IMG/VR virus record: IMGVR_UViG_3300009964_000015
Length of the DNA stretch: 39,487 nt
Reading direction: 5' to 3' (one strand)
From: a virus
This document shows, in pieces, positions 128 to 11,409 of this stretch. Numbering within the stretch: position 1 is the first letter of the stretch; every line of letters begins with the position of its first letter. The notes under the pieces are model-generated. The model was not told the DNA's origin. It worked only from the letters and a program-made list of their open reading frames with translations, and searched no databases. A program made the translations under genes and the position numbers.

Positions 128-257
128 GTATTTAGGAGTGTCTATAAAAACAGTTACTCGCAGATTGAATTCATCTAAAAAATATTGGTTCGACAAGAAC
201 TCAAATTCGATAAAAGAAAAAGGACAAGACCATAAAAACGTGGTCGTGTCCGAATAA
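3..257 (+). CDS. C-terminal end of the primase-helicase gene that starts at 37332 (wraps around the circle); contains a C-terminal HTH (SKEDVAEYLGVSIKTVTRRL)
   Basis: Position 3 corresponds to 39363 and is in the same frame as the GTG at 37332. The combined ORF is 2286 nt (761 aa). Stop TAA at 255-257. Confidence 0.85.
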   Translation: MKAKETRKKNAKEDKKQKLIEFDEAIENANFGEPPSKEDVAEYLGVSIKTVTRRLNSSKKYWFDKNSNSIKEKGQDHKNVVVSE

Positions 258-331
258 GACAGCACCATAAATTTATGGTTGTGTCTTTGTCTTAAAAAGG
301 ACAGACAAGACCATAAAAACGTGGTCGTGTC
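217..331. repeat. Direct repeat pair: 28-bp identical core GACAAGACCATAAAAACGTGGTCGTGTC at 223-250 and 304-331
   Basis: Both copies are preceded by AAAAAGGACA; copy 2 has a 4-bp GACA insertion. Each core contains the small inverted repeat GACCA-N8-TGGTC. Copy 1 overlaps the last codons of the primase-helicase gene. Confidence 0.9.
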
Positions 332-470
332 TTGGACAGACAACTATATATTATATATATAGATAATGTCCTGTCGTCCATCATGTCCATACCTGTATAG
401 ACAGGGTTGCTAAAAACGCACCCTGTCATATACAAGGTCCATGGACTAAAAGCGAAATTTAAAAAAGAAA
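217..470. other. Putative phage origin of replication (iterons, palindromes, AT-rich tract)
   Basis: Contains the direct repeats above, the perfect 16-bp palindrome ACCATAAATTTATGGT (264-279) and an alternating AT tract (343-367). GGACA/TGTCC motifs are clustered at 222, 299, 334, 367 and 384, and the 10-bp palindrome GTCCATGGAC lies at 437-446. The region sits directly 3' of the replication initiator gene. Confidence 0.5.
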
Positions 471-3899: not shown

Positions 3900-4044
3900 T
3901 AATTACAAAGTGATATTATTGTATTGTCAGCAAGTACGGTAAAACGAACTGATGGCTCCTTTAATAATTTTTTTTGTAACGATGTCAGGGACGAGCCAGT
4001 GATTTCCTCTTAGTCTTTCGTTTAGTCTCTGATGTCGTTATTTT

Positions 4045-4115
4045 AGGCTTTTAGTGTAGCGGTAACACAACAGTCTCCAAAACTGTTATCGTGGGTTCGA
4101 TTCCTGCAAAGTCTG
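4045..4115 (+). tRNA. tRNA-Trp: tRNA-Trp (anticodon CCA), 71 nt, no encoded CCA end
   Basis: Hand-folded cloverleaf. Acceptor stem AGGCTTT/AAAGTCT. D arm GTGT-AGCGGTA-ACAC. Anticodon arm ACAGT-CTCCAAA-ACTGT. T arm GTGGG-TTCGATT-CCTGC. A1-U72 plus G73 and the CUCCAAA loop match the bacterial tRNA-Trp pattern. Confidence 0.85.
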
Positions 4116-4133
4116 TGAGAGGTCTTAATTAAA

Positions 4134-4158
4134 AGTCACATGGTTGTGTGGCTTTTTT
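4134..4158 (+). terminator. Intrinsic terminator after the tRNA
   Basis: Stem AGTCACA/TGTGGCT (7 bp, one G.T), 6-nt loop, then a T5-6 run. Confidence 0.6.
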
Positions 4159-5888: not shown

Positions 5889-7301
5889 ATGTATCAGATT
5901 TTAACTTATCCACGAGATGGATACGATGAAACAGCTTTGAGCAAGGAATTGATCTACAAGCTGATTCGCAAGCATACACAAGAACGCAGTCGCTTGCAGA
6001 AATTGAAGAAATACTACTTGGGTGAGCATGCTATCTTGAATCATACGAGAAGAAATCAGAATGCGCCGAATTTTAAAACGGTAGCAAACCACGCTAAGGA
6101 CATCGCAGACACATCTACTGGCTATTTCATGGGCAATCCTATCAAGTATAATAATACTGCTGAGAGCGACCTTGAGCCTTTGCTTGAGGCTTTTGACGGT
6201 GCTGAAATCGACCAAGTAGACGCTCAGAATGCTTTGAACATGGCTATCTATGGACGTGCTTACGAATACATTTATGCGAAGGAAGGACTGACTGAGCTTG
6301 ATTCGACTAGCGTAGATCCTGAGAATGTATTTCTTGTTTACGATGATAGTATCGAACGCAAGGCCTTGTTTGCAGTCTATTACTACGAAATCAAAGATGA
6401 CACGAAAGATGCGACTAAGTATCAAGCAGAAGTCTTTACTCAGAATCTGCATTATCACATTGTGCTGCGTGATTCGAGCATGGGAACAACCAGGAACGAG
6501 CAAGTAGAACCTCACAACCTCGGGCAAATCCCAATCATCGAATACCGTAACAACCACTTTGCGATTGGTGACTACGAGCAACAAATCAGCTTGATTGATG
6601 CTTATAATTCGTTGATGGGTAACCGAGTCAATGACAAGGAGCAAGCAGTCGAGTCTATTCTTGTTCTGTACGGCGCGCAATTGGCTGATAACCTGGAGGA
6701 TGCTAGAGAAGCAATGAGCATCCTTGCTGAAGAAGGCCTTTTGGAATTGCCAGCAGATGCCAAAGCTGATTTCTTGAAAAATGCTCTGGACGAAAACGCG
6801 ACTGAAATTTTGCGTAAGGCTTTGAAAGAAGACATCTACACATTCAGCCATGTGCCGAATTTGACAGATGAAAACTTCGCAGGCAATAGCTCGGGCGTAG
6901 CCATGGAATTCAAGCTATTGGGCCTTGAAATGATTACTAAGACGAAAGAAGCGAACTACAAGCGAGGTCTTAGACAGCGGATTGCTATCTTCGCTCATTA
7001 CTTAGGCATGCAGCAGATTGCTCTTGAAGCACATTCAATCGTGCCACAGTTTAGCCGTGGATTGCCTAAGAACTTGCTCGAATTGTCACAGATTATCAAT
7101 AATCTTGAAGGTAAGGTCTCACTTCGTCAGCTTATTTCGCTCTTGCCATTCGTTGAAGATCCTGATGCTGAACTTGAAGAACTCGAAGAAGAGAAAGAAA
7201 AGAATAAGGACCGTGTGCCATTCTTTAATCAGGCGAACACGAAGCCAGAGGAAGAGGTAGCAGATGAACAACAAGGACTACTGGACCCAGAGGAAGGCTA
7301 A
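5889..7301 (+). CDS. Portal protein (SPP1 gp6-like)
   Basis: 470 aa, positioned after TerL, with an acidic C-terminal tail. Confidence 0.8.
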   Translation: MYQILTYPRDGYDETALSKELIYKLIRKHTQERSRLQKLKKYYLGEHAILNHTRRNQNAPNFKTVANHAKDIADTSTGYFMGNPIKYNNTAESDLEPLLEAFDGAEIDQVDAQNALNMAIYGRAYEYIYAKEGLTELDSTSVDPENVFLVYDDSIERKALFAVYYYEIKDDTKDATKYQAEVFTQNLHYHIVLRDSSMGTTRNEQVEPHNLGQIPIIEYRNNHFAIGDYEQQISLIDAYNSLMGNRVNDKEQAVESILVLYGAQLADNLEDAREAMSILAEEGLLELPADAKADFLKNALDENATEILRKALKEDIYTFSHVPNLTDENFAGNSSGVAMEFKLLGLEMITKTKEANYKRGLRQRIAIFAHYLGMQQIALEAHSIVPQFSRGLPKNLLELSQIINNLEGKVSLRQLISLLPFVEDPDAELEELEEEKEKNKDRVPFFNQANTKPEEEVADEQQGLLDPEEG

Positions 7302-9129
7302 CCTTATCTATGAGCAAATGGATAAGGCTGAGAGGCAAGCGGACAAGTTCGACGAGATTTACAAGCAATCTAAAGCTTATCTAGACAAGCAAATAAATAA
7401 GGTCTTTGATAAATTTCAACGCGATTATGGTTTGAGCGAACGTGATGCTCGTCATGTTTTGAAGAACATGAAGGACCAGAAGGACCTAAACGAACTTCGC
7501 AAGGTGCTTGAAGCTAGACCGAACGACCCAAATATTCAACGATTGCTTGCTGATTTGGACAGTCCAGCCTATGCTTATCGCATGAAACGACTTGAACGGT
7601 TAAGTGCTGACTTAGATTTGATGCGTGAGTCTATCTATCTTTCTGAGAAGAAAGGCTCAGATGCTTTTTACAGCGACCTGATGAAGGATAGCTATTACAA
7701 GGCTACTTTTGACCTGCAACAGCAGACTGGACTGGCATACGGCTTTTCTAGGCTTCCTGAGAGTGAGATAAAACATCTACAGTCTTTTAGTTGGGTAGGT
7801 GACGGAAGTACTTACTCTATAGATATCTGGAAGAACACAGGGAAACTCGCTTCTAGCATAAAAGATGAACTCCTCATAAGCCTCATGACAGGACGAGGAA
7901 CACGAGAAACTGCACAAGCAATTGCTGAGAGGTTCAGCGTGAGTCAGAATGATGCAAGGCGTTTGGTTCGTACCGAGTCAGCGTTCTTTCATAACCAAAT
8001 GGAACTGCTCAGCTATGAAGATGCTGAAATCACAAAGTACAAATTTGTGGCAGTATTGGACAGGCGCACGTCTCACATCTGCCAAGAACAGGACAACGAG
8101 GTCTATGATACAGACAAGGCTGTTCCTGGTGTGAACTATCCACCTCTACATCCGTGGTGCAGGTCTACGACTATCGCATACGACGAGAACGCAGATTACA
8201 GCAAACTAGAACGTAGAGCGAGAAATCCAGAGACAGGTAAGGTTGAGTATGTGCCTGCTGATATGAGTTATAAAGAGTGGTATTCTAAGTACGTTGACAA
8301 AGACGAAAAAGAACAAAAGAACGCTTTTATGGATTCGTTTTCAAATGGATTGGATTTAAAGCAAAAAACTCTTTCTAATTTTGACCATTACGCTAGAAAG
8401 TGGTATAATGATTACGTAGAAAAGCAATTATCTTTTGAAGATATAGAGTTGGCCAGCAATAAGATTAAAGATGTTTTAGAAAACAGCGAATTATCTATGC
8501 GCTTCAAATCTGAAAACATAGATAAACTAATAGATTCAACTAGAATTTTGAATCAGTTCGAAACCGGAACAAGCGGTGGTACTGTAAACTTGAAGTATCG
8601 TCGCCAAGCAAATGAACAGCTTTTTGGTTTACAAGGGAAAAGATTGAAGAAGCATGACTTTGAAAAGTATGGGTACTTCGGAAATAAAGACCCTTATGAA
8701 GATTTTCTATACAATTCAAAAAGCTGGGGTGGCGTTTCGCAATATGGAGATATAATTGTTCGTTTTTCTAAAGATAAAATGTTATCAAGAACAACGTTCA
8801 CTATAAACAATAGTTTGGGTCCTGCTGTCTACAAGGATTTAGTTGCGGATAACCCTAATTCGCCTCATCTTTTAAGTATTGACAAAAATTATTTACAAGA
8901 TTATGTCGAACTTTTGAAAAATAAAAATGCAAGAACGCCTGAAGAGTTAACAAAAACATTAGGAATCAGATATATTGAGGCTCAAATCCATGGGGACGTT
9001 GGATTGACGGATATCTCCAGTATGTACTTCACTAATAAAATACCAAATAACAATCAAATTAATGCGTTGAAATCATATGGGATTGATGTTTTCGTGAAAG
9101 AGGGTGAAAAATTTGTTCGAGTTGAATAA
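7264..9129 (+). CDS. Head morphogenesis/minor capsid protein (SPP1 gp7 / Mu F domain) fused to an unassigned C-terminal domain of about 275 aa
   Basis: The MuF part ends around YPPLHPWCRSTTIAY. The C-terminal extension begins at about nt 8311 and is more A+T-rich. Confidence 0.8.
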   Translation: MNNKDYWTQRKANLIYEQMDKAERQADKFDEIYKQSKAYLDKQINKVFDKFQRDYGLSERDARHVLKNMKDQKDLNELRKVLEARPNDPNIQRLLADLDSPAYAYRMKRLERLSADLDLMRESIYLSEKKGSDAFYSDLMKDSYYKATFDLQQQTGLAYGFSRLPESEIKHLQSFSWVGDGSTYSIDIWKNTGKLASSIKDELLISLMTGRGTRETAQAIAERFSVSQNDARRLVRTESAFFHNQMELLSYEDAEITKYKFVAVLDRRTSHICQEQDNEVYDTDKAVPGVNYPPLHPWCRSTTIAYDENADYSKLERRARNPETGKVEYVPADMSYKEWYSKYVDKDEKEQKNAFMDSFSNGLDLKQKTLSNFDHYARKWYNDYVEKQLSFEDIELASNKIKDVLENSELSMRFKSENIDKLIDSTRILNQFETGTSGGTVNLKYRRQANEQLFGLQGKRLKKHDFEKYGYFGNKDPYEDFLYNSKSWGGVSQYGDIIVRFSKDKMLSRTTFTINNSLGPAVYKDLVADNPNSPHLLSIDKNYLQDYVELLKNKNARTPEELTKTLGIRYIEAQIHGDVGLTDISSMYFTNKIPNNNQINALKSYGIDVFVKEGEKFVRVE

Positions 9130-9424
9130 AATATTAGGAATAGATGATAGTCGTAACAACATTCTAGTCACACTAACAGACGGTCGGTGTGCTCTTGTAG
9201 ATGTAAATCGACGAGGTTTTGTTGTAGAAATTCTATTAGATTCTTTTTACAAATGGATGAGTTTTTCAGATGATTTCACTGAAGAAGATGTTAGTAACGT
9301 CAAGGCTATTTTAGCAACCCCAGAAGGCATTGGGTATGGTCCGCTTGCTGAAGAGTATGTAATTAATTCAAAAATAAAACGTGACTTTGATGAAATGAAA
9401 AAAGAAATCGGCTATGAATATTAA
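9113..9424 (+). CDS. Hypothetical protein; candidate immunity/partner protein of the MuF C-terminal domain
   Basis: Overlaps the MuF stop. The TTG at 9113 lies 7 nt after AGAGGGTG; the GTG at 9104 from the ORF track is an alternative start. Followed by its own terminator. Confidence 0.55.
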   Translation: MFELNKILGIDDSRNNILVTLTDGRCALVDVNRRGFVVEILLDSFYKWMSFSDDFTEEDVSNVKAILATPEGIGYGPLAEEYVINSKIKRDFDEMKKEIGYEY

Positions 9425-9452
9425 GCACCTAGAGAAATCTAAGTGCTTTTTT
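9423..9452 (+). terminator. Intrinsic terminator
   Basis: Stem AAGCACcTAG/CTAaGTGCTT, 6-nt loop, then T6. Confidence 0.6.
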
Positions 9453-9474
9453 CGTGTTCAGAAAGGAGAGTCTG

Positions 9475-9642
9475 ATGAATAAGTACAAAAAGTTGGATAT
9501 GATGATTGGCAAATACGAGAAAGGACAGTTAGAGTTTGAACCTAAATGTCCTATTGATTTGTTAAAAGGTCAGCGTTCGACTATGTGGAATTATTTAAAA
9601 ATTCTAGAACAACGTGCAAAAATTGAGGAAATTAAACTATAA
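9475..9642 (+). CDS. Small hypothetical protein (55 aa)
   Basis: The ATG at 9475 follows AAAGGAGAG; the track start at 9454 is GTG. Followed by a strong terminator. Confidence 0.55.
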   Translation: MNKYKKLDMMIGKYEKGQLEFEPKCPIDLLKGQRSTMWNYLKILEQRAKIEEIKL

Positions 9643-9647
9643 AACCT

Positions 9648-9675
9648 AACCGTATGGAATCCCGTACGGTTTTTA
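9648..9675 (+). terminator. Intrinsic terminator
   Basis: 10-bp stem AACCGTATGG/CCGTACGGTT (one G.T), loop AATC, then a T5 run. Confidence 0.7.
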
Positions 9676-9676
9676 T

Positions 9677-9769
9677 GCGCACGAAGGGGAGATAGTTCGA
9701 TCCTATCTCACGGGTTAATCAAGTTCGAGTCTTGAAATCTGGCGGGTGGTTCGAGTCCACCGGTGCGCG
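9677..9769 (+). ncRNA. tRNA-like structured element with three T-loop hairpins inside an acceptor-type helix; not a canonical tRNA
   Basis: Closing helix GCGCAC/GTGCGC. Hairpins: GAGATAG-TTCGATC-CTATCTC (9689-9709), TCAAG-TTCGAGT-CTTGA (9719-9735) and GGTGG-TTCGAGT-CCACC (9745-9761). The last hairpin abuts the 3' acceptor strand as a T arm does in a real tRNA. Confidence 0.55.
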
Positions 9770-9847
9770 TTATTGTCCAAGCATTGAAGACTCTAAAAGC
9801 TATGGAATTATACAGTCGGGGACGACTTTAAAAATAGGAGGTTCGTA

Positions 9848-10366
9848 ATGAACGAAGAAACACAAACAGTCGAAACGGTTGAAGCTCAAGGGGTGCCTGC
9901 AGAACCTACTACCGAAAACCAACCGCAAGACGAGAAGAAGTACACAGATGCAGAAGTCGATGCCATCATCGACAAGAAATTTGCTAAGTGGAAATCAGAG
10001 CAAGAAGCCAAGGAAAACGAAGCTAAGAAGCTTGCTAAGATGAACGCTGATGAGAAGAAAGATTATCAGCTGAAACAACTTGAGCAAGAACTAGCTGACC
10101 GTGAGAAGGCTATTGCTCGTAAGGAATTGACCGCAGAGGCTAGAACGATGCTAAGTGAACGTGGCTTACCAGTCGAATTAGTAGCAGTGGTTGATTTGTC
10201 AGACGCTGAAGCGGTGACTGAATCAGTCGCAAGCATTCAGAAAACGTGGGAGGATGCAGTCCAAAAAGGTGTATCTGACCGCATGAAGGGTGGCGCACCT
10301 ATCAAGACTGCGCCAATAAATCAGCAGGAAGTCACCGAAAAATGGAGACAGGACTTTTTGCGCTAG
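9848..10366 (+). CDS. Capsid scaffolding protein (DUF4355-like)
   Basis: Acidic and coiled-coil, with KYTDAEVDAIIDKKFAKWKSEQEAKENEAKK. Lies immediately upstream of the capsid gene. Confidence 0.75.
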   Translation: MNEETQTVETVEAQGVPAEPTTENQPQDEKKYTDAEVDAIIDKKFAKWKSEQEAKENEAKKLAKMNADEKKDYQLKQLEQELADREKAIARKELTAEARTMLSERGLPVELVAVVDLSDAEAVTESVASIQKTWEDAVQKGVSDRMKGGAPIKTAPINQQEVTEKWRQDFLR

Positions 10367-10392: not shown

Positions 10393-11409
10393 ATGGCATT
10401 TGAAGCATTAAACACAGCAGAATCACGCAAGAAACACCTTGGAATCATTGAGGATGTTCTTGCGGTAAATTCATACGCAACACCACTCTTGACACCAACT
10501 GAAGCAGTGACTCTAAACGGTCGCTCATTCACAGTCGCAACAGGTAACACAACCGAGCTAAAGGACTACAAACGTAACAAAGACAATGAATTTGACCACG
10601 TAGAAGTTGAAGAAAAGGTCTACACTCTTGAAGAAGAAAAATACTGGGGCCGTTTCGTTGACCAATTGGATGAACGTGATTCAAACGGTCAAGTAAACAT
10701 TGAGTATGTGATTGCTCGTCAGGCTGCTGAAGTAGTCGCTCCATATCTTGACAAACTTCGTTTCGATGCAGCACTCGGAAACGTAAGTGACAATGTGGTC
10801 ATGGGTAAAACGGCAGGAGCCAACAACGCTTACAATGCAGTTCTTGACGTTTCTGAGAAATTGGATGAACTTGGAATCACTAAAGAACGCTTGCTCTTTG
10901 TCACACCAAGTTTCTACAAGGCTATCAAATCTGAAATCGTGCGCTTGCCACAAGGAGATGCAGACAAGAAGGTTCTTGGAAAAGGATATGTTGGTGAACT
11001 GGATGACTACACAGTCTACAAAGTACCTTCAAAATTCTTGCCAAATGTGAACGCCCTTGCAGCTGCACCTGGCGTAGTGACATCACCAATTCAAATCGAC
11101 AACACTAAGTACAACGACAACGTACCTGGTCGATTTGGTGAATTGGTAGAACAATTGCTCTACACTGGAGCTTATGTGCTTGAACACTTCCAAAAATACA
11201 TCATCACAATTGCAGATTCTAAACCTGCTGCTAAGAAGTCAGCTCAAGGCAAGACAGTGAACCGTGCTAAAGCTTGGAAGACTGGAACAGCCTACAAAGA
11301 AGGCGACACAGTAACGCATGAAGACAAGGTCTATGTCGCTATCAAAGACATCACTAGCTCGACCAACGCACCAGACTCTGACTCAGCTAACTGGAAAATC
11401 AAGAAATAA
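10393..11409 (+). CDS. Major capsid protein with a C-terminal CBM5/12-like (chitin-binding type 3) domain
   Basis: 338 aa, positioned after the scaffold gene. C terminus AWKTGTAYKEGDTVTHEDKVYVAIKD...ANW. Confidence 0.75.
   Translation: MAFEALNTAESRKKHLGIIEDVLAVNSYATPLLTPTEAVTLNGRSFTVATGNTTELKDYKRNKDNEFDHVEVEEKVYTLEEEKYWGRFVDQLDERDSNGQVNIEYVIARQAAEVVAPYLDKLRFDAALGNVSDNVVMGKTAGANNAYNAVLDVSEKLDELGITKERLLFVTPSFYKAIKSEIVRLPQGDADKKVLGKGYVGELDDYTVYKVPSKFLPNVNALAAAPGVVTSPIQIDNTKYNDNVPGRFGELVEQLLYTGAYVLEHFQKYIITIADSKPAAKKSAQGKTVNRAKAWKTGTAYKEGDTVTHEDKVYVAIKDITSSTNAPDSDSANWKIKK

Follow-up and report, generated by a model that had tools for sequence, protein, structure and literature searches.

A putative tRNA-shaped RNA with three T-loops in the late gene region of temperate phages of mitis-group streptococci

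Mimics of transfer RNA (tRNA) are familiar from RNA viruses and from eukaryotic long non-coding RNAs; cases from bacteriophages are few and mostly uncharacterized. Phage T4 reportedly makes two stable tRNA-like RNAs, species 1 and 2, which are said to be processed by RNase P in its tRNA cluster and not to be decoding tRNAs. In plant mitochondria, non-canonical cloverleaves with a GGTTCRANYCC T-arm, the t-elements, are found in the leaders and trailers of messenger RNAs (mRNAs) (Forner et al., 2007; PMC1920247); their cleavage by RNase P and RNase Z defines mRNA ends and leaves a stable excised RNA (PMC1920247). The excision of mascRNA is a further precedent for the release of a tRNA-like fold (PMC11693755), and T-loops have been recognized as general docking modules that, when paired, make platforms for binding the tRNA elbow (PMC4919913). 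Here, we analyze a 93-nt element at positions 9677-9769 of IMG/VR virus record IMGVR_UViG_3300009964_000015. This whole stretch of 39,487 nt, hereafter called the window and the source of all coordinates, comes from a temperate siphophage of mitis-group streptococci whose closest record is phage Javan355 (Streptococcus oralis; 87% identity across 68% of the first 20 kb).

Using pattern scans and a covariance model, we collected 48 copies of the element with 23 distinct sequences, all of them in temperate phages of mitis-group streptococci. The sources comprise two GenBank phages (MissE1 and Javan355), about 34 IMG/VR contigs, 20 metagenome contigs, and 5 of 185,579 species-representative genomes, each belonging to S. 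pneumoniae, S. mitis or S. oralis. A model-based alignment of the family contains 29 base pairs in four helices, of which 99.3% are paired, and 10 of these pairs (40 alignment cells) are changed on both sides. The covariation score was reached in none of 500 column shuffles, and sliding the 3' partners left only 27-57% paired. An independent MAFFT alignment of the core helices gave the same picture, with double changes at 7 of 23 pairs. Double changes are present in the closing helix (pair 3:70, GC/AU; pair 5:68, AU/UA/GC/CG/UG), at four of the seven pairs in the stem of arm 1, which is 100% paired, at two pairs of the inner helix of arm 2 (UA/CG; CG/UA/AU), and at two pairs of arm 3 in seven variants (GC/AU, UA/CG). 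Since the outer helix of arm 2 exhibits one-sided compatible changes only, plus one broken cell, we regard its 6 bp as plausible but not proven. These comparative data provide strong evidence for a selected RNA structure. An earlier note on this DNA, made from its letters alone, had proposed a structured element instead of a chance pattern and had named covariation among homologues as a way to check this; all four helices do covary.

In one alignment of the homologues, the helix cells contain 10 G.U as opposed to 3 A.C combinations, and the T-loop consensus is readable on the plus strand only. Both findings argue that the selected molecule is a plus-strand RNA, in the same orientation as the late genes. 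The minus-strand RNA, in which the same hairpins fold, was rejected on these two grounds.

A shared trait of the family resides in its three hairpin loops. Each of them keeps U-U-C-R-A in 23 of 23 variants, leaves positions 6 and 7 free, and is closed by an invariant G-C pair; the fit to the T-loop signature that the earlier note had seen in the three 7-nt loops of the window is thus kept across the family. The sole change in loop positions 1-5 is from G to A at the purine position. In arm 1, for instance, the loop reads UUCGAUC, UUCGAUU, UUCAAUC or UUCAAUU, position 4 staying a purine throughout. The T-loops of tRNAs vary in this same pattern (PMC7912444). Within the window, GTTCGANNC occurs six times (4.7 expected); three copies lie within 63 nt at the element and a fourth is the T-loop of a phage-encoded tRNA-Trp. 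Three copies within 70 nt on one strand were obtained in 0 of 5000 shuffles of the window.

The earlier parse of positions 9677-9769 matches the sequence exactly: GCGCACG/AAGGG/GAGATAG-TTCGATC-CTATCTC/ACGGGTTAA/TCAAG-TTCGAGT-CTTGA in the 5' half, continued by AATCTGGCG/GGTGG-TTCGAGT-CCACC/GGTGCGC/G in the 3' half. The G+C content of the element amounts to 56%, that of the window to 41%, and that of the flanks to 33-37%. No open reading frame (ORF) of at least 50 aa overlaps the element on either strand, where only short chance ORFs of 21-38 aa are present. The AT preceding the element forms an ATG with G1 and starts a mini-ORF of six codons (MRTKGR-stop; 9675-9695). Every variant retains this mini-ORF, which lacks a Shine-Dalgarno sequence and probably arises as a side effect of sequence conservation.

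With no structure supplied, RNAalifold folds the family into a cloverleaf-like four-way junction with junction strands of 6, 1, 3, and 1 nt (Table 1). In the consensus, a 6-bp closing helix is followed by a 6-nt strand, arm 1 (7 bp), a single A, arm 2 (6+5 bp), GCG, arm 3 (5 bp), one purine (9762) through which arm 3 adjoins the closing helix, and the 3' strand of that helix. The earlier note could not fold a cloverleaf; the two 9-nt linkers that it described pair with each other in the four-way junction. Its closing helix and T-arm were correctly recognized as far as the six Watson-Crick pairs are concerned, but position 7:66 is purine-purine, and one purine separates arm 3 from the closing helix. 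In the alignments, nt 7 (9683) and the opposing nt 66 (9762) always form G.G, A.G or A.A and never a Watson-Crick pair. The combined acceptor/T-stem consists of six Watson-Crick pairs, the purine-purine combination, and a 5-bp T-stem, which gives 12 layers only if the two purines stack. Covariation ends at 9768, and the insertion relative to empty sites ends 0-2 nt from 9769.

Table 1. Coordinates of the element, its structural parts, and the adjoining features in the window
Feature	Position	Strand	Remarks
Intrinsic-terminator-like hairpin upstream of the element	9648-9675	+	AACCGUAUGG/CCGUACGGUU; 10 bp + U5; folds independently in context
Acceptor-like closing helix, 5' strand (GCGCAC)	9677-9682	+	Pairs with 9763-9768; 6 pairs, 99.3% paired
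Junction strand J1 (R-A-A-R-G-G)	9683-9688	+	GG at 9687-9688 invariant
Arm 1, in the place of the D arm	9689-9709	+	7-bp stem GAGAUAG/CUAUCUC; T-loop-like loop UUCGAUC, 9696-9702
J2, single A between arms 1 and 2	9710	+	Invariant in 23/23 variants; analogous to tRNA position 26
Arm 2	9711-9741	+	Outer helix 9711-9716 (CGGGUU) with 9736-9741 (AAUCUG), 6 bp including two G.U; purine bulge 9717-9718 (AA, GG or GA across variants); inner helix 9719-9723 with 9731-9735; T-loop-like loop UUCGAGU, 9724-9730
J3 (GCG), in the place of the variable loop	9742-9744	+	Invariant
Arm 3, the T-arm proper	9745-9761	+	5-bp stem GGUGG/CCACC; loop UUCGAGU, 9750-9756; 99.1% paired
Closing helix, 3' strand (GUGCGC, 9763-9768), and discriminator-like base (9769)	9763-9769	+	From the alignments; base 9769 is G in the window, C or U in other variants
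U-rich trailer with the conserved scaffold-gene leader	9770-9847	+	Starts TTATTGTCCAAGC; outside the element; present in element-less phages
Scaffold gene, DUF4355	9848-10366	+	Pfam PF14265, E = 1.9e-31; 78 nt downstream of the element

As a single sequence, the element of the window attains its minimum free energy as a rod (-36.0 kcal/mol), which beats the cloverleaf by just 0.8 kcal/mol; in most variants, the cloverleaf is the minimum-energy fold or lies about 1-2 kcal/mol from it. The rod was rejected, as it is disrupted in 7 of 17 homologues, whereas hairpins 1 and 3 covary. A further pairing, of J1 residues 9686-9690 with the 3' strand of arm 3 (9756-9761), can form in nearly all variants (97.6% paired, one-sided changes only); it may reflect a second conformer that rivals the T-arm, or the chance complementarity of a G-rich and a C-rich strand.

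The family is confined to its streptococcal setting. A scan for the three-hairpin pattern through 596 Gb of genomes and a metagenome set recovered only this family. A loose triple-motif scan of viral contigs returned mostly tandem coding and non-coding repeats, and after a hairpin filter only the streptococcal family and one RNA of jumbo phages were left. As an example of such repeats, tandem palindromic units (GCGAACGTTCGAACCGTTCG) on a 160-kb viral contig (L029:3269-3342, minus strand) score 21.6 bits against the model of the element; periodic GTTCGA repeats of this type are the main false positives of motif-based searches. No divergent copies were detected by the covariance model in relatives with an empty site; its matches either exceed 100 bits or are absent. 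The model finds no second copy in the window, and an apparent second copy on one metagenome contig turned out to be two windows overlapping a single locus. The distribution of the family is narrow: one phage lineage in one streptococcal group.

Comparison with described RNAs places the element in the broad known kind of tRNA-like RNAs and tRNA mimics. In the window, ARAGORN reported only the tRNA-Trp gene (4044-4116), and it reported nothing on contigs L039, L007, and L081. Rfam 15 at gathering threshold likewise yielded only this tRNA-Trp in the whole window, with nothing overlapping 9677-9769; in a 601-nt search (9400-10000) at E ≤ 10, there was no tRNA or other match on the element, and none of the Rfam families, including YrlA, tmRNA, RtT, riboswitches, and ribozymes, matches it. 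These outcomes agree with the former description of the element as tRNA-like yet no tRNA, and with the arm geometry they rule out an ordinary, intron-containing or decayed tRNA. Three decayed tRNA genes, already thought unlikely, are untenable as an origin. A scan for tRNAs sharing the T-arm and acceptor 3' end gave only unrelated tRNAs and new members of the family with UUCAA loops, and descent from a particular tRNA was rejected.

The element shares with canonical tRNA (RF00005) a closing helix with G1-C72, a 5-bp T-stem with G53-C61, a UUCRANN loop next to the 3' acceptor strand, 12 stacked layers from the T-loop to the 5' end under the stacking proviso given above, a four-way junction, and a single nucleotide between arms 1 and 2. 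Unlike tRNA, it has neither a D arm, as had been noted before, nor a D-loop; the place of the D arm is held by arm 1, a covarying 7-bp hairpin with a T-loop. Its "anticodon" arm comprises 11 bp and a bulge and ends in a T-loop, its discriminator is variable, and its junction strands measure 6/1/3/1 nt compared to 2/1/4-5/0 nt in tRNA. YrlA (RF02553) is likewise a bacterial or phage-borne non-coding RNA with a tRNA-like domain, made up of an acceptor-like helix and a T-arm, whose anticodon arm is replaced by a longer helix, but it possesses a D-arm mimic and a Ro/Rsr-binding stem, whereas our element has no Ro-binding module. T4 species 1 and 2 differ from it by their location in the tRNA cluster of a virulent coliphage, by size and fold, and by having no known triple T-loop. 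The mascRNA, menRNA, and viral 3' tRNA-like structures resemble the element as tRNA mimics derived from longer transcripts, with RNase P/RNase Z processing and CCA addition (PMC11693755, PMC8127992); they are eukaryotic or belong to RNA viruses, however, form a whole L-shape with a single T-loop/D-loop elbow, and do not carry T-loops on all arms, and the viral ones are 3'-terminal and aminoacylated. Several T-loops within one small RNA domain, used for docking, are also found in T-box stem I, the RNase P S-domain, and the L1 stalk (PMC4919913); those are pentanucleotide T-loops that bind the tRNA elbow, in contrast to the three 7-nt T-arm hairpins described here.

Two further candidates were discarded. 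An array or phage pseudo-antitoxin of the type III toxin-antitoxin (ToxI-like) kind, built of tandem near-identical repeats of about 35-40 nt, is excluded: the three hairpins have the loop alone in common, their stems and spacers differ, a helix encloses them, and no linked toxin gene was found. An intrinsic terminator is contradicted by the lack of a U-run after any of the three hairpins; the terminator-like hairpin is a separate feature (Table 1). No description of the element was found in the full-text literature, a search that did not cover the supplement of a phage catalogue of 10,006 csRNAs. The triple-T-loop cloverleaf matches no described family, and its architecture is unusual.

Every copy of the element occupies the same site. 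It follows a terminator hairpin and its T-run by 1-2 nt, with at least six different terminator sequences being represented, and is succeeded by a few T's and then by the leader (TTGTCCAA...) of the head-assembly genes, a leader that comes in two types. The element is seen behind at least five upstream gene sets and before three kinds of first downstream gene; the window, MissE1, and Javan355 have three different cargo sets upstream of it. Both neighbors pointed out in the earlier note are in place in the window: the hairpin with its U5 tail folds on its own, although a simple terminator scan did not call it, and the DUF4355 scaffold gene begins at the distance given there. Of the 80 loci with the most closely related scaffold genes, 15-16 contain the element, and at about 62 the site is precisely empty (e.g., GGTTTTTATATTGTCC at several loci and in phage 34117). 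The exact difference between a filled and an empty site is the cloverleaf and 1-2 T, which argues that the functional unit is the fold alone, irrespective of the neighboring genes.

Identical upstream genes and terminators are seen both where the element is present and where it is missing, and phages with these genes often do not have it. When ORFs within 2.5 kb on either side were clustered for 30 positive and 53 negative loci in search of a protein partner, no positive-specific cluster emerged; apparent enrichments of ORF clusters reflect the sampling of negative loci. All 5 of the 5 streptococcal genomes hold one copy, at the terminator-scaffold site. We conclude from these comparisons that the element is an autonomous, optional module that is not tied to the MuF-toxin-like cassette upstream. 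The idea that it might be an RNA partner of that effector cassette is consequently not upheld, given the varied upstream genes and the lack of an element-specific ORF cluster.

What might such a module do? We tentatively favor its being a tRNA-like part of the late transcript that would be excised by the RNase P and RNase Z of the host, much as a t-element is; the transcription, both cleavages, and any benefit to the phage are what we infer here. The element would be a plus-strand, tRNA-shaped non-coding RNA whose acceptor-like helix and purine-purine layer stack on a canonical T-arm. A sigma-70-type promoter was not found between 9643 and 9847; with no promoter of its own, the RNA would be made only when late transcription passes the terminator directly upstream, and thus within the late transcript. 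The tRNA-maturation enzymes of the host would recognize the acceptor/T-arm stack, with RNase P predicted to cut between the invariant U(-1) (9676) and G1 (9677), and RNase Z after the discriminator (9769) and before the U-rich trailer; CCA addition may follow. These cuts would separate the accessory-gene cassette from the scaffold/capsid genes in the late polycistronic RNA and set free a compact and stable product, about 93 nt long, that displays three T-loops.

Several properties of the family are consistent with such processing. The G1-C72 pair is invariant, base -1 is U in every copy, a U follows the discriminator in all variants, and no CCA is encoded. Acceptor/T-arm minihelices serve as substrates of RNase P, and a U after the discriminator is reported to favor the action of RNase Z on precursors that lack CCA (Pellegrini et al., 2003). 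As far as sequence and secondary structure go, the element presents an acceptor/T-arm stack of about 12 bp with an intact T-loop: the 6 bp of the closing helix, the purine-purine layer, and the 5 bp of arm 3 would make up 12 stacked layers between the T-loop and the predicted cleavage site, and RNase P measures this very distance on tRNA (PMC4919913). The second-best match of the element's model in the window is the phage tRNA-Trp (11 bits), which aligns with it in acceptor, arm, and T-arm; this tRNA is also CCA-less, so that a CCA-less processing pathway would be used during infection. Like the t-elements, the element is a cloverleaf that does not decode, and its position between two blocks of cistrons is analogous. 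The t-elements differ in that they belong to another domain of life, have no homology to the element, and contain one T-arm instead of three T-loops.

A number of observations weigh against excision as the explanation. The element sits directly behind a good terminator and has no recognizable promoter, and its transcription therefore depends on read-through or antitermination. The mismatch at 7:66, the extra purine between T-stem and acceptor, the junction strands unlike those of tRNA, and the missing D-loop all depart from a tRNA substrate. Both U(-1) and the U-rich trailer occur at empty sites too; they are compatible with processing, but selection for processing cannot be claimed from them. 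About 80% of the close relatives do without the element, so any role in the maturation of late mRNA is dispensable. Moreover, a bare acceptor/T-arm minihelix would suffice for processing, which by itself leaves the strict keeping of two extra T-loops and of the junction purines unexplained. This surplus conservation is the main argument for an added function in trans or for a specific tertiary fold.

A function in trans would be compatible with excision by tRNA-maturation enzymes and be added downstream of it: the released RNA might titrate, as a decoy or sponge, a factor of the host or of a defense system that reads the tRNA elbow, the T-arm or the acceptor end. Candidates would be a tRNA-directed toxin or abortive-infection nuclease, a toxin modifying the CCA end, or a processing or modification enzyme. 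We consider this possible, although on balance unlikely. Isolated T-arm hairpins are minimal substrates of TruB/TrmA-type enzymes, and three of them would make the RNA multivalent. An optional module with an occupancy of about 20% that moves independently of its neighbors is typical of anti-defense cargo, the loops keep the full T-loop signature while the stems drift, which pure processing does not need, and the range is narrow and host-specific, with only S. pneumoniae, S. mitis, and S. oralis represented among the 185,579 species genomes. The computed results, however, point to no particular target, and we know of no T-loop-reading defense system in mitis-group streptococci. The RNA would be made late, if at all, behind a terminator, while a counter-defense must act early, and the variation of the discriminator base (G/C/U) argues against mimicry of one specific tRNA 3' end. 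A precedent for phage tRNAs countering tRNA-targeting defenses is the tRNA-Tyr of T5, which acts against a retron (bioRxiv 10.1101/2023.03.15.532788). In a more specific form that we rate as unlikely, the element would be a dedicated, host-processed triple T-arm RNA, i.e., a tRNA-shaped scaffold that evolved to show three T-loops and serves as a multivalent decoy or inhibitor directed at T-arm or elbow readers. If true, such a triple T-arm decoy would be a new class of RNA-based phage counter-measure.

Alternatively, the element could act purely in cis, as a 5' stabilizer and punctuation mark for the scaffold-capsid mRNA, with the released RNA having no role of its own; this appears rather unlikely to us. 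The cut by RNase P would leave a folded 5' domain that guards the downstream message from 5'-end-dependent decay, and the upstream fragment would retain the terminator hairpin. Bacillus phage SP82 provides an example of 5' stabilizers made by processing, and the t-elements of plant mitochondria are a precedent as well. The invariant place of all 48 copies, with a terminator on one side and the leader of the most strongly expressed structural genes on the other, and in front of three kinds of downstream gene, would suit this role. Yet in the roughly 80% of phages that lack the element, the leader and the hairpin it contains evidently suffice, and three T-loops with conserved junction purines are over-engineered for a stabilizer.

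A binding fold, in which the T-loops serve as tertiary modules that build a pocket for a small molecule or a platform for the elbow of a host tRNA, is improbable. The flavin mononucleotide (FMN) riboswitch and the interdigitated double T-loops of T-box stem I, RNase P, and the L1 stalk are its models. The strictly conserved purines of J1, J3, J4, and the bulge might intercalate into the T-loops, and a multi-way junction closed by a P1-like helix and equipped with T-loops, which are docking modules (PMC4919913), would be an apt frame. On the other hand, no expression platform is present: no downstream sequence offers an alternative partner to the 3' strand of the closing helix, and the leader beyond it is the same in loci with and without the element. 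The known elbow-binding T-loops, besides, are pentanucleotide motifs in bulges or loops and not three canonical 7-nt T-arm hairpins.

We regard it as highly improbable that the element works at the level of DNA and has no RNA function, be it as an insertion resembling a miniature inverted-repeat transposable element (MITE) or as a relic or target of site-specific recombination at the 3' end of a tRNA-like sequence. Its presence and absence are clean, its boundaries coincide with the inverted-repeat ends GCGCAC...GTGCGC, and short TAT/TTAT repeats flank many of the filled sites. Some filled sites have no such repeat, however, and most empty sites read TTTTTATATTGTCC, which misfits a simple target-site duplication. 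The dispersed repeats BOX, RUP, and SPRITE of pneumococci are present at more than 100 sites per genome, whereas the element was single-copy and always at the same site in the five streptococcal genomes, and membership in these repeats or in MITEs was rejected. No larger insertion occurs at the site in the 80 loci, and the integrase/attP region of the phage lies elsewhere (about 24.3-25.6 kb). Above all, compensatory changes in four helices, together with G.U pairs on one strand, bespeak selection on a folded single strand and not on duplex DNA that binds a protein.

A decoding, non-canonical tRNA-Ser with the middle loop as anticodon CGA is effectively refuted by its geometry. In its favor, the middle loop of the window (UUCGAGU) would supply U33 and a purine at 37, the closing helix and T-arm are tRNA-like, and an unrelated tRNA-like gene of jumbo phages carries the identical loop at the anticodon position. 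Against it, the arm of 11 bp plus a bulge, in lieu of 5 bp, would put the loop about 6 bp too far from the acceptor end for decoding on the ribosome, position 37 (G, A or U) is U in two variants and the loop varies as the other T-loops do, a D arm is missing, the discriminator varies, and both ARAGORN and the Rfam tRNA model reject the element.

The surroundings of the element in the window have features of their own. The tRNA-Trp(CCA) gene, with no encoded CCA, lies just upstream of the gene for the terminase small subunit and is followed by a hairpin with a T-run at about 4128-4158. A MuF (PF04233) head-morphogenesis protein (7264-9129) has a C-terminal extension of about 300 aa, whose only match is a weak one to DUF3626, and is followed by a 106-aa ORF (9104-9424) with no Pfam match, at a place where MissE1 and Javan355 carry other cargo. 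We take the layout of this extension and the 106-aa ORF to resemble the MuF polymorphic-toxin/immunity pairs of phages. Terminator-like hairpins at 9424-9450 and 9648-9675 bracket a 62-aa ORF (9454-9642; related to Pfam crAss001_48), which has the appearance of a moron-like cassette in the late operon and implies that late transcription reads through several terminators. Within the scaffold-gene leader, a hairpin (AGUCG-GGGA-CGACU, 9814-9827) is located just upstream of the ribosome-binding site; the second leader type (TTGTCCAAACCGTGC...GAGTTCGGGGAGGTTGCCCGT) precedes other types of head genes, and both types might hide a late promoter other than sigma-70 or a processing site. The 338-aa ORF directly after the scaffold gene (10393-11409) presumably encodes the major capsid protein; its product has a carbohydrate-binding domain, CBM_5_12, at the C-terminal end (residues 294-335, E = 5e-9).

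The RNA left by the hairpin filter next to the streptococcal family is a tRNA-like gene of about 118 nt, found on jumbo-phage contigs of 230-415 kb with large tRNA arrays (L074:3362-3481, plus strand; L070, about 215-335, minus strand; L082, about 170-300, minus strand; L243, L244, and L245) and known in only three sequence variants. Its acceptor helix, GACGGTA/TACCGTC, covaries (GACGATA/TATCGTT in L070), and it contains a D-arm-like hairpin with GG, the loop UUCGAGU at the anticodon position, and two extra hairpins (one with UUCGACC) before the T-arm. Like the streptococcal element, it is phage-borne, possesses a covarying acceptor helix and three hairpins whose loops carry GTTCGA, and escapes both ARAGORN and Rfam. 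Its sequence is unrelated, however (17 bits to model R1, E = 0.12); it has a proper D-arm and extra hairpins in the variable region, is located next to tRNA arrays, and seems to be equipped with a promoter-like sequence of its own. With its three GTTCGA hairpins, this second RNA hints at a possible repeated origin of tRNA mimics that bear several T-loops.

The element described here is compact and covaries strongly; its cloverleaf employs the tRNA T-loop three times, an architecture for which no counterpart was found in Rfam or in the literature searched. With three T-loops and conserved junction purines within 93 nt, its fold is attractive for structure determination, and the precisely empty site in about 80% of near-identical phages amounts to a natural knock-out that eases genetic tests. 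If the RNA is processed by the RNase P and RNase Z of the host, it would be the counterpart, in a bacterial virus, of the t-elements of plant mitochondria, and these phages would use the tRNA-maturation machinery of their hosts to punctuate late mRNAs. A role in trans, if it has one, could bring to light a host factor or defense directed at tRNA in pneumococci and their relatives.

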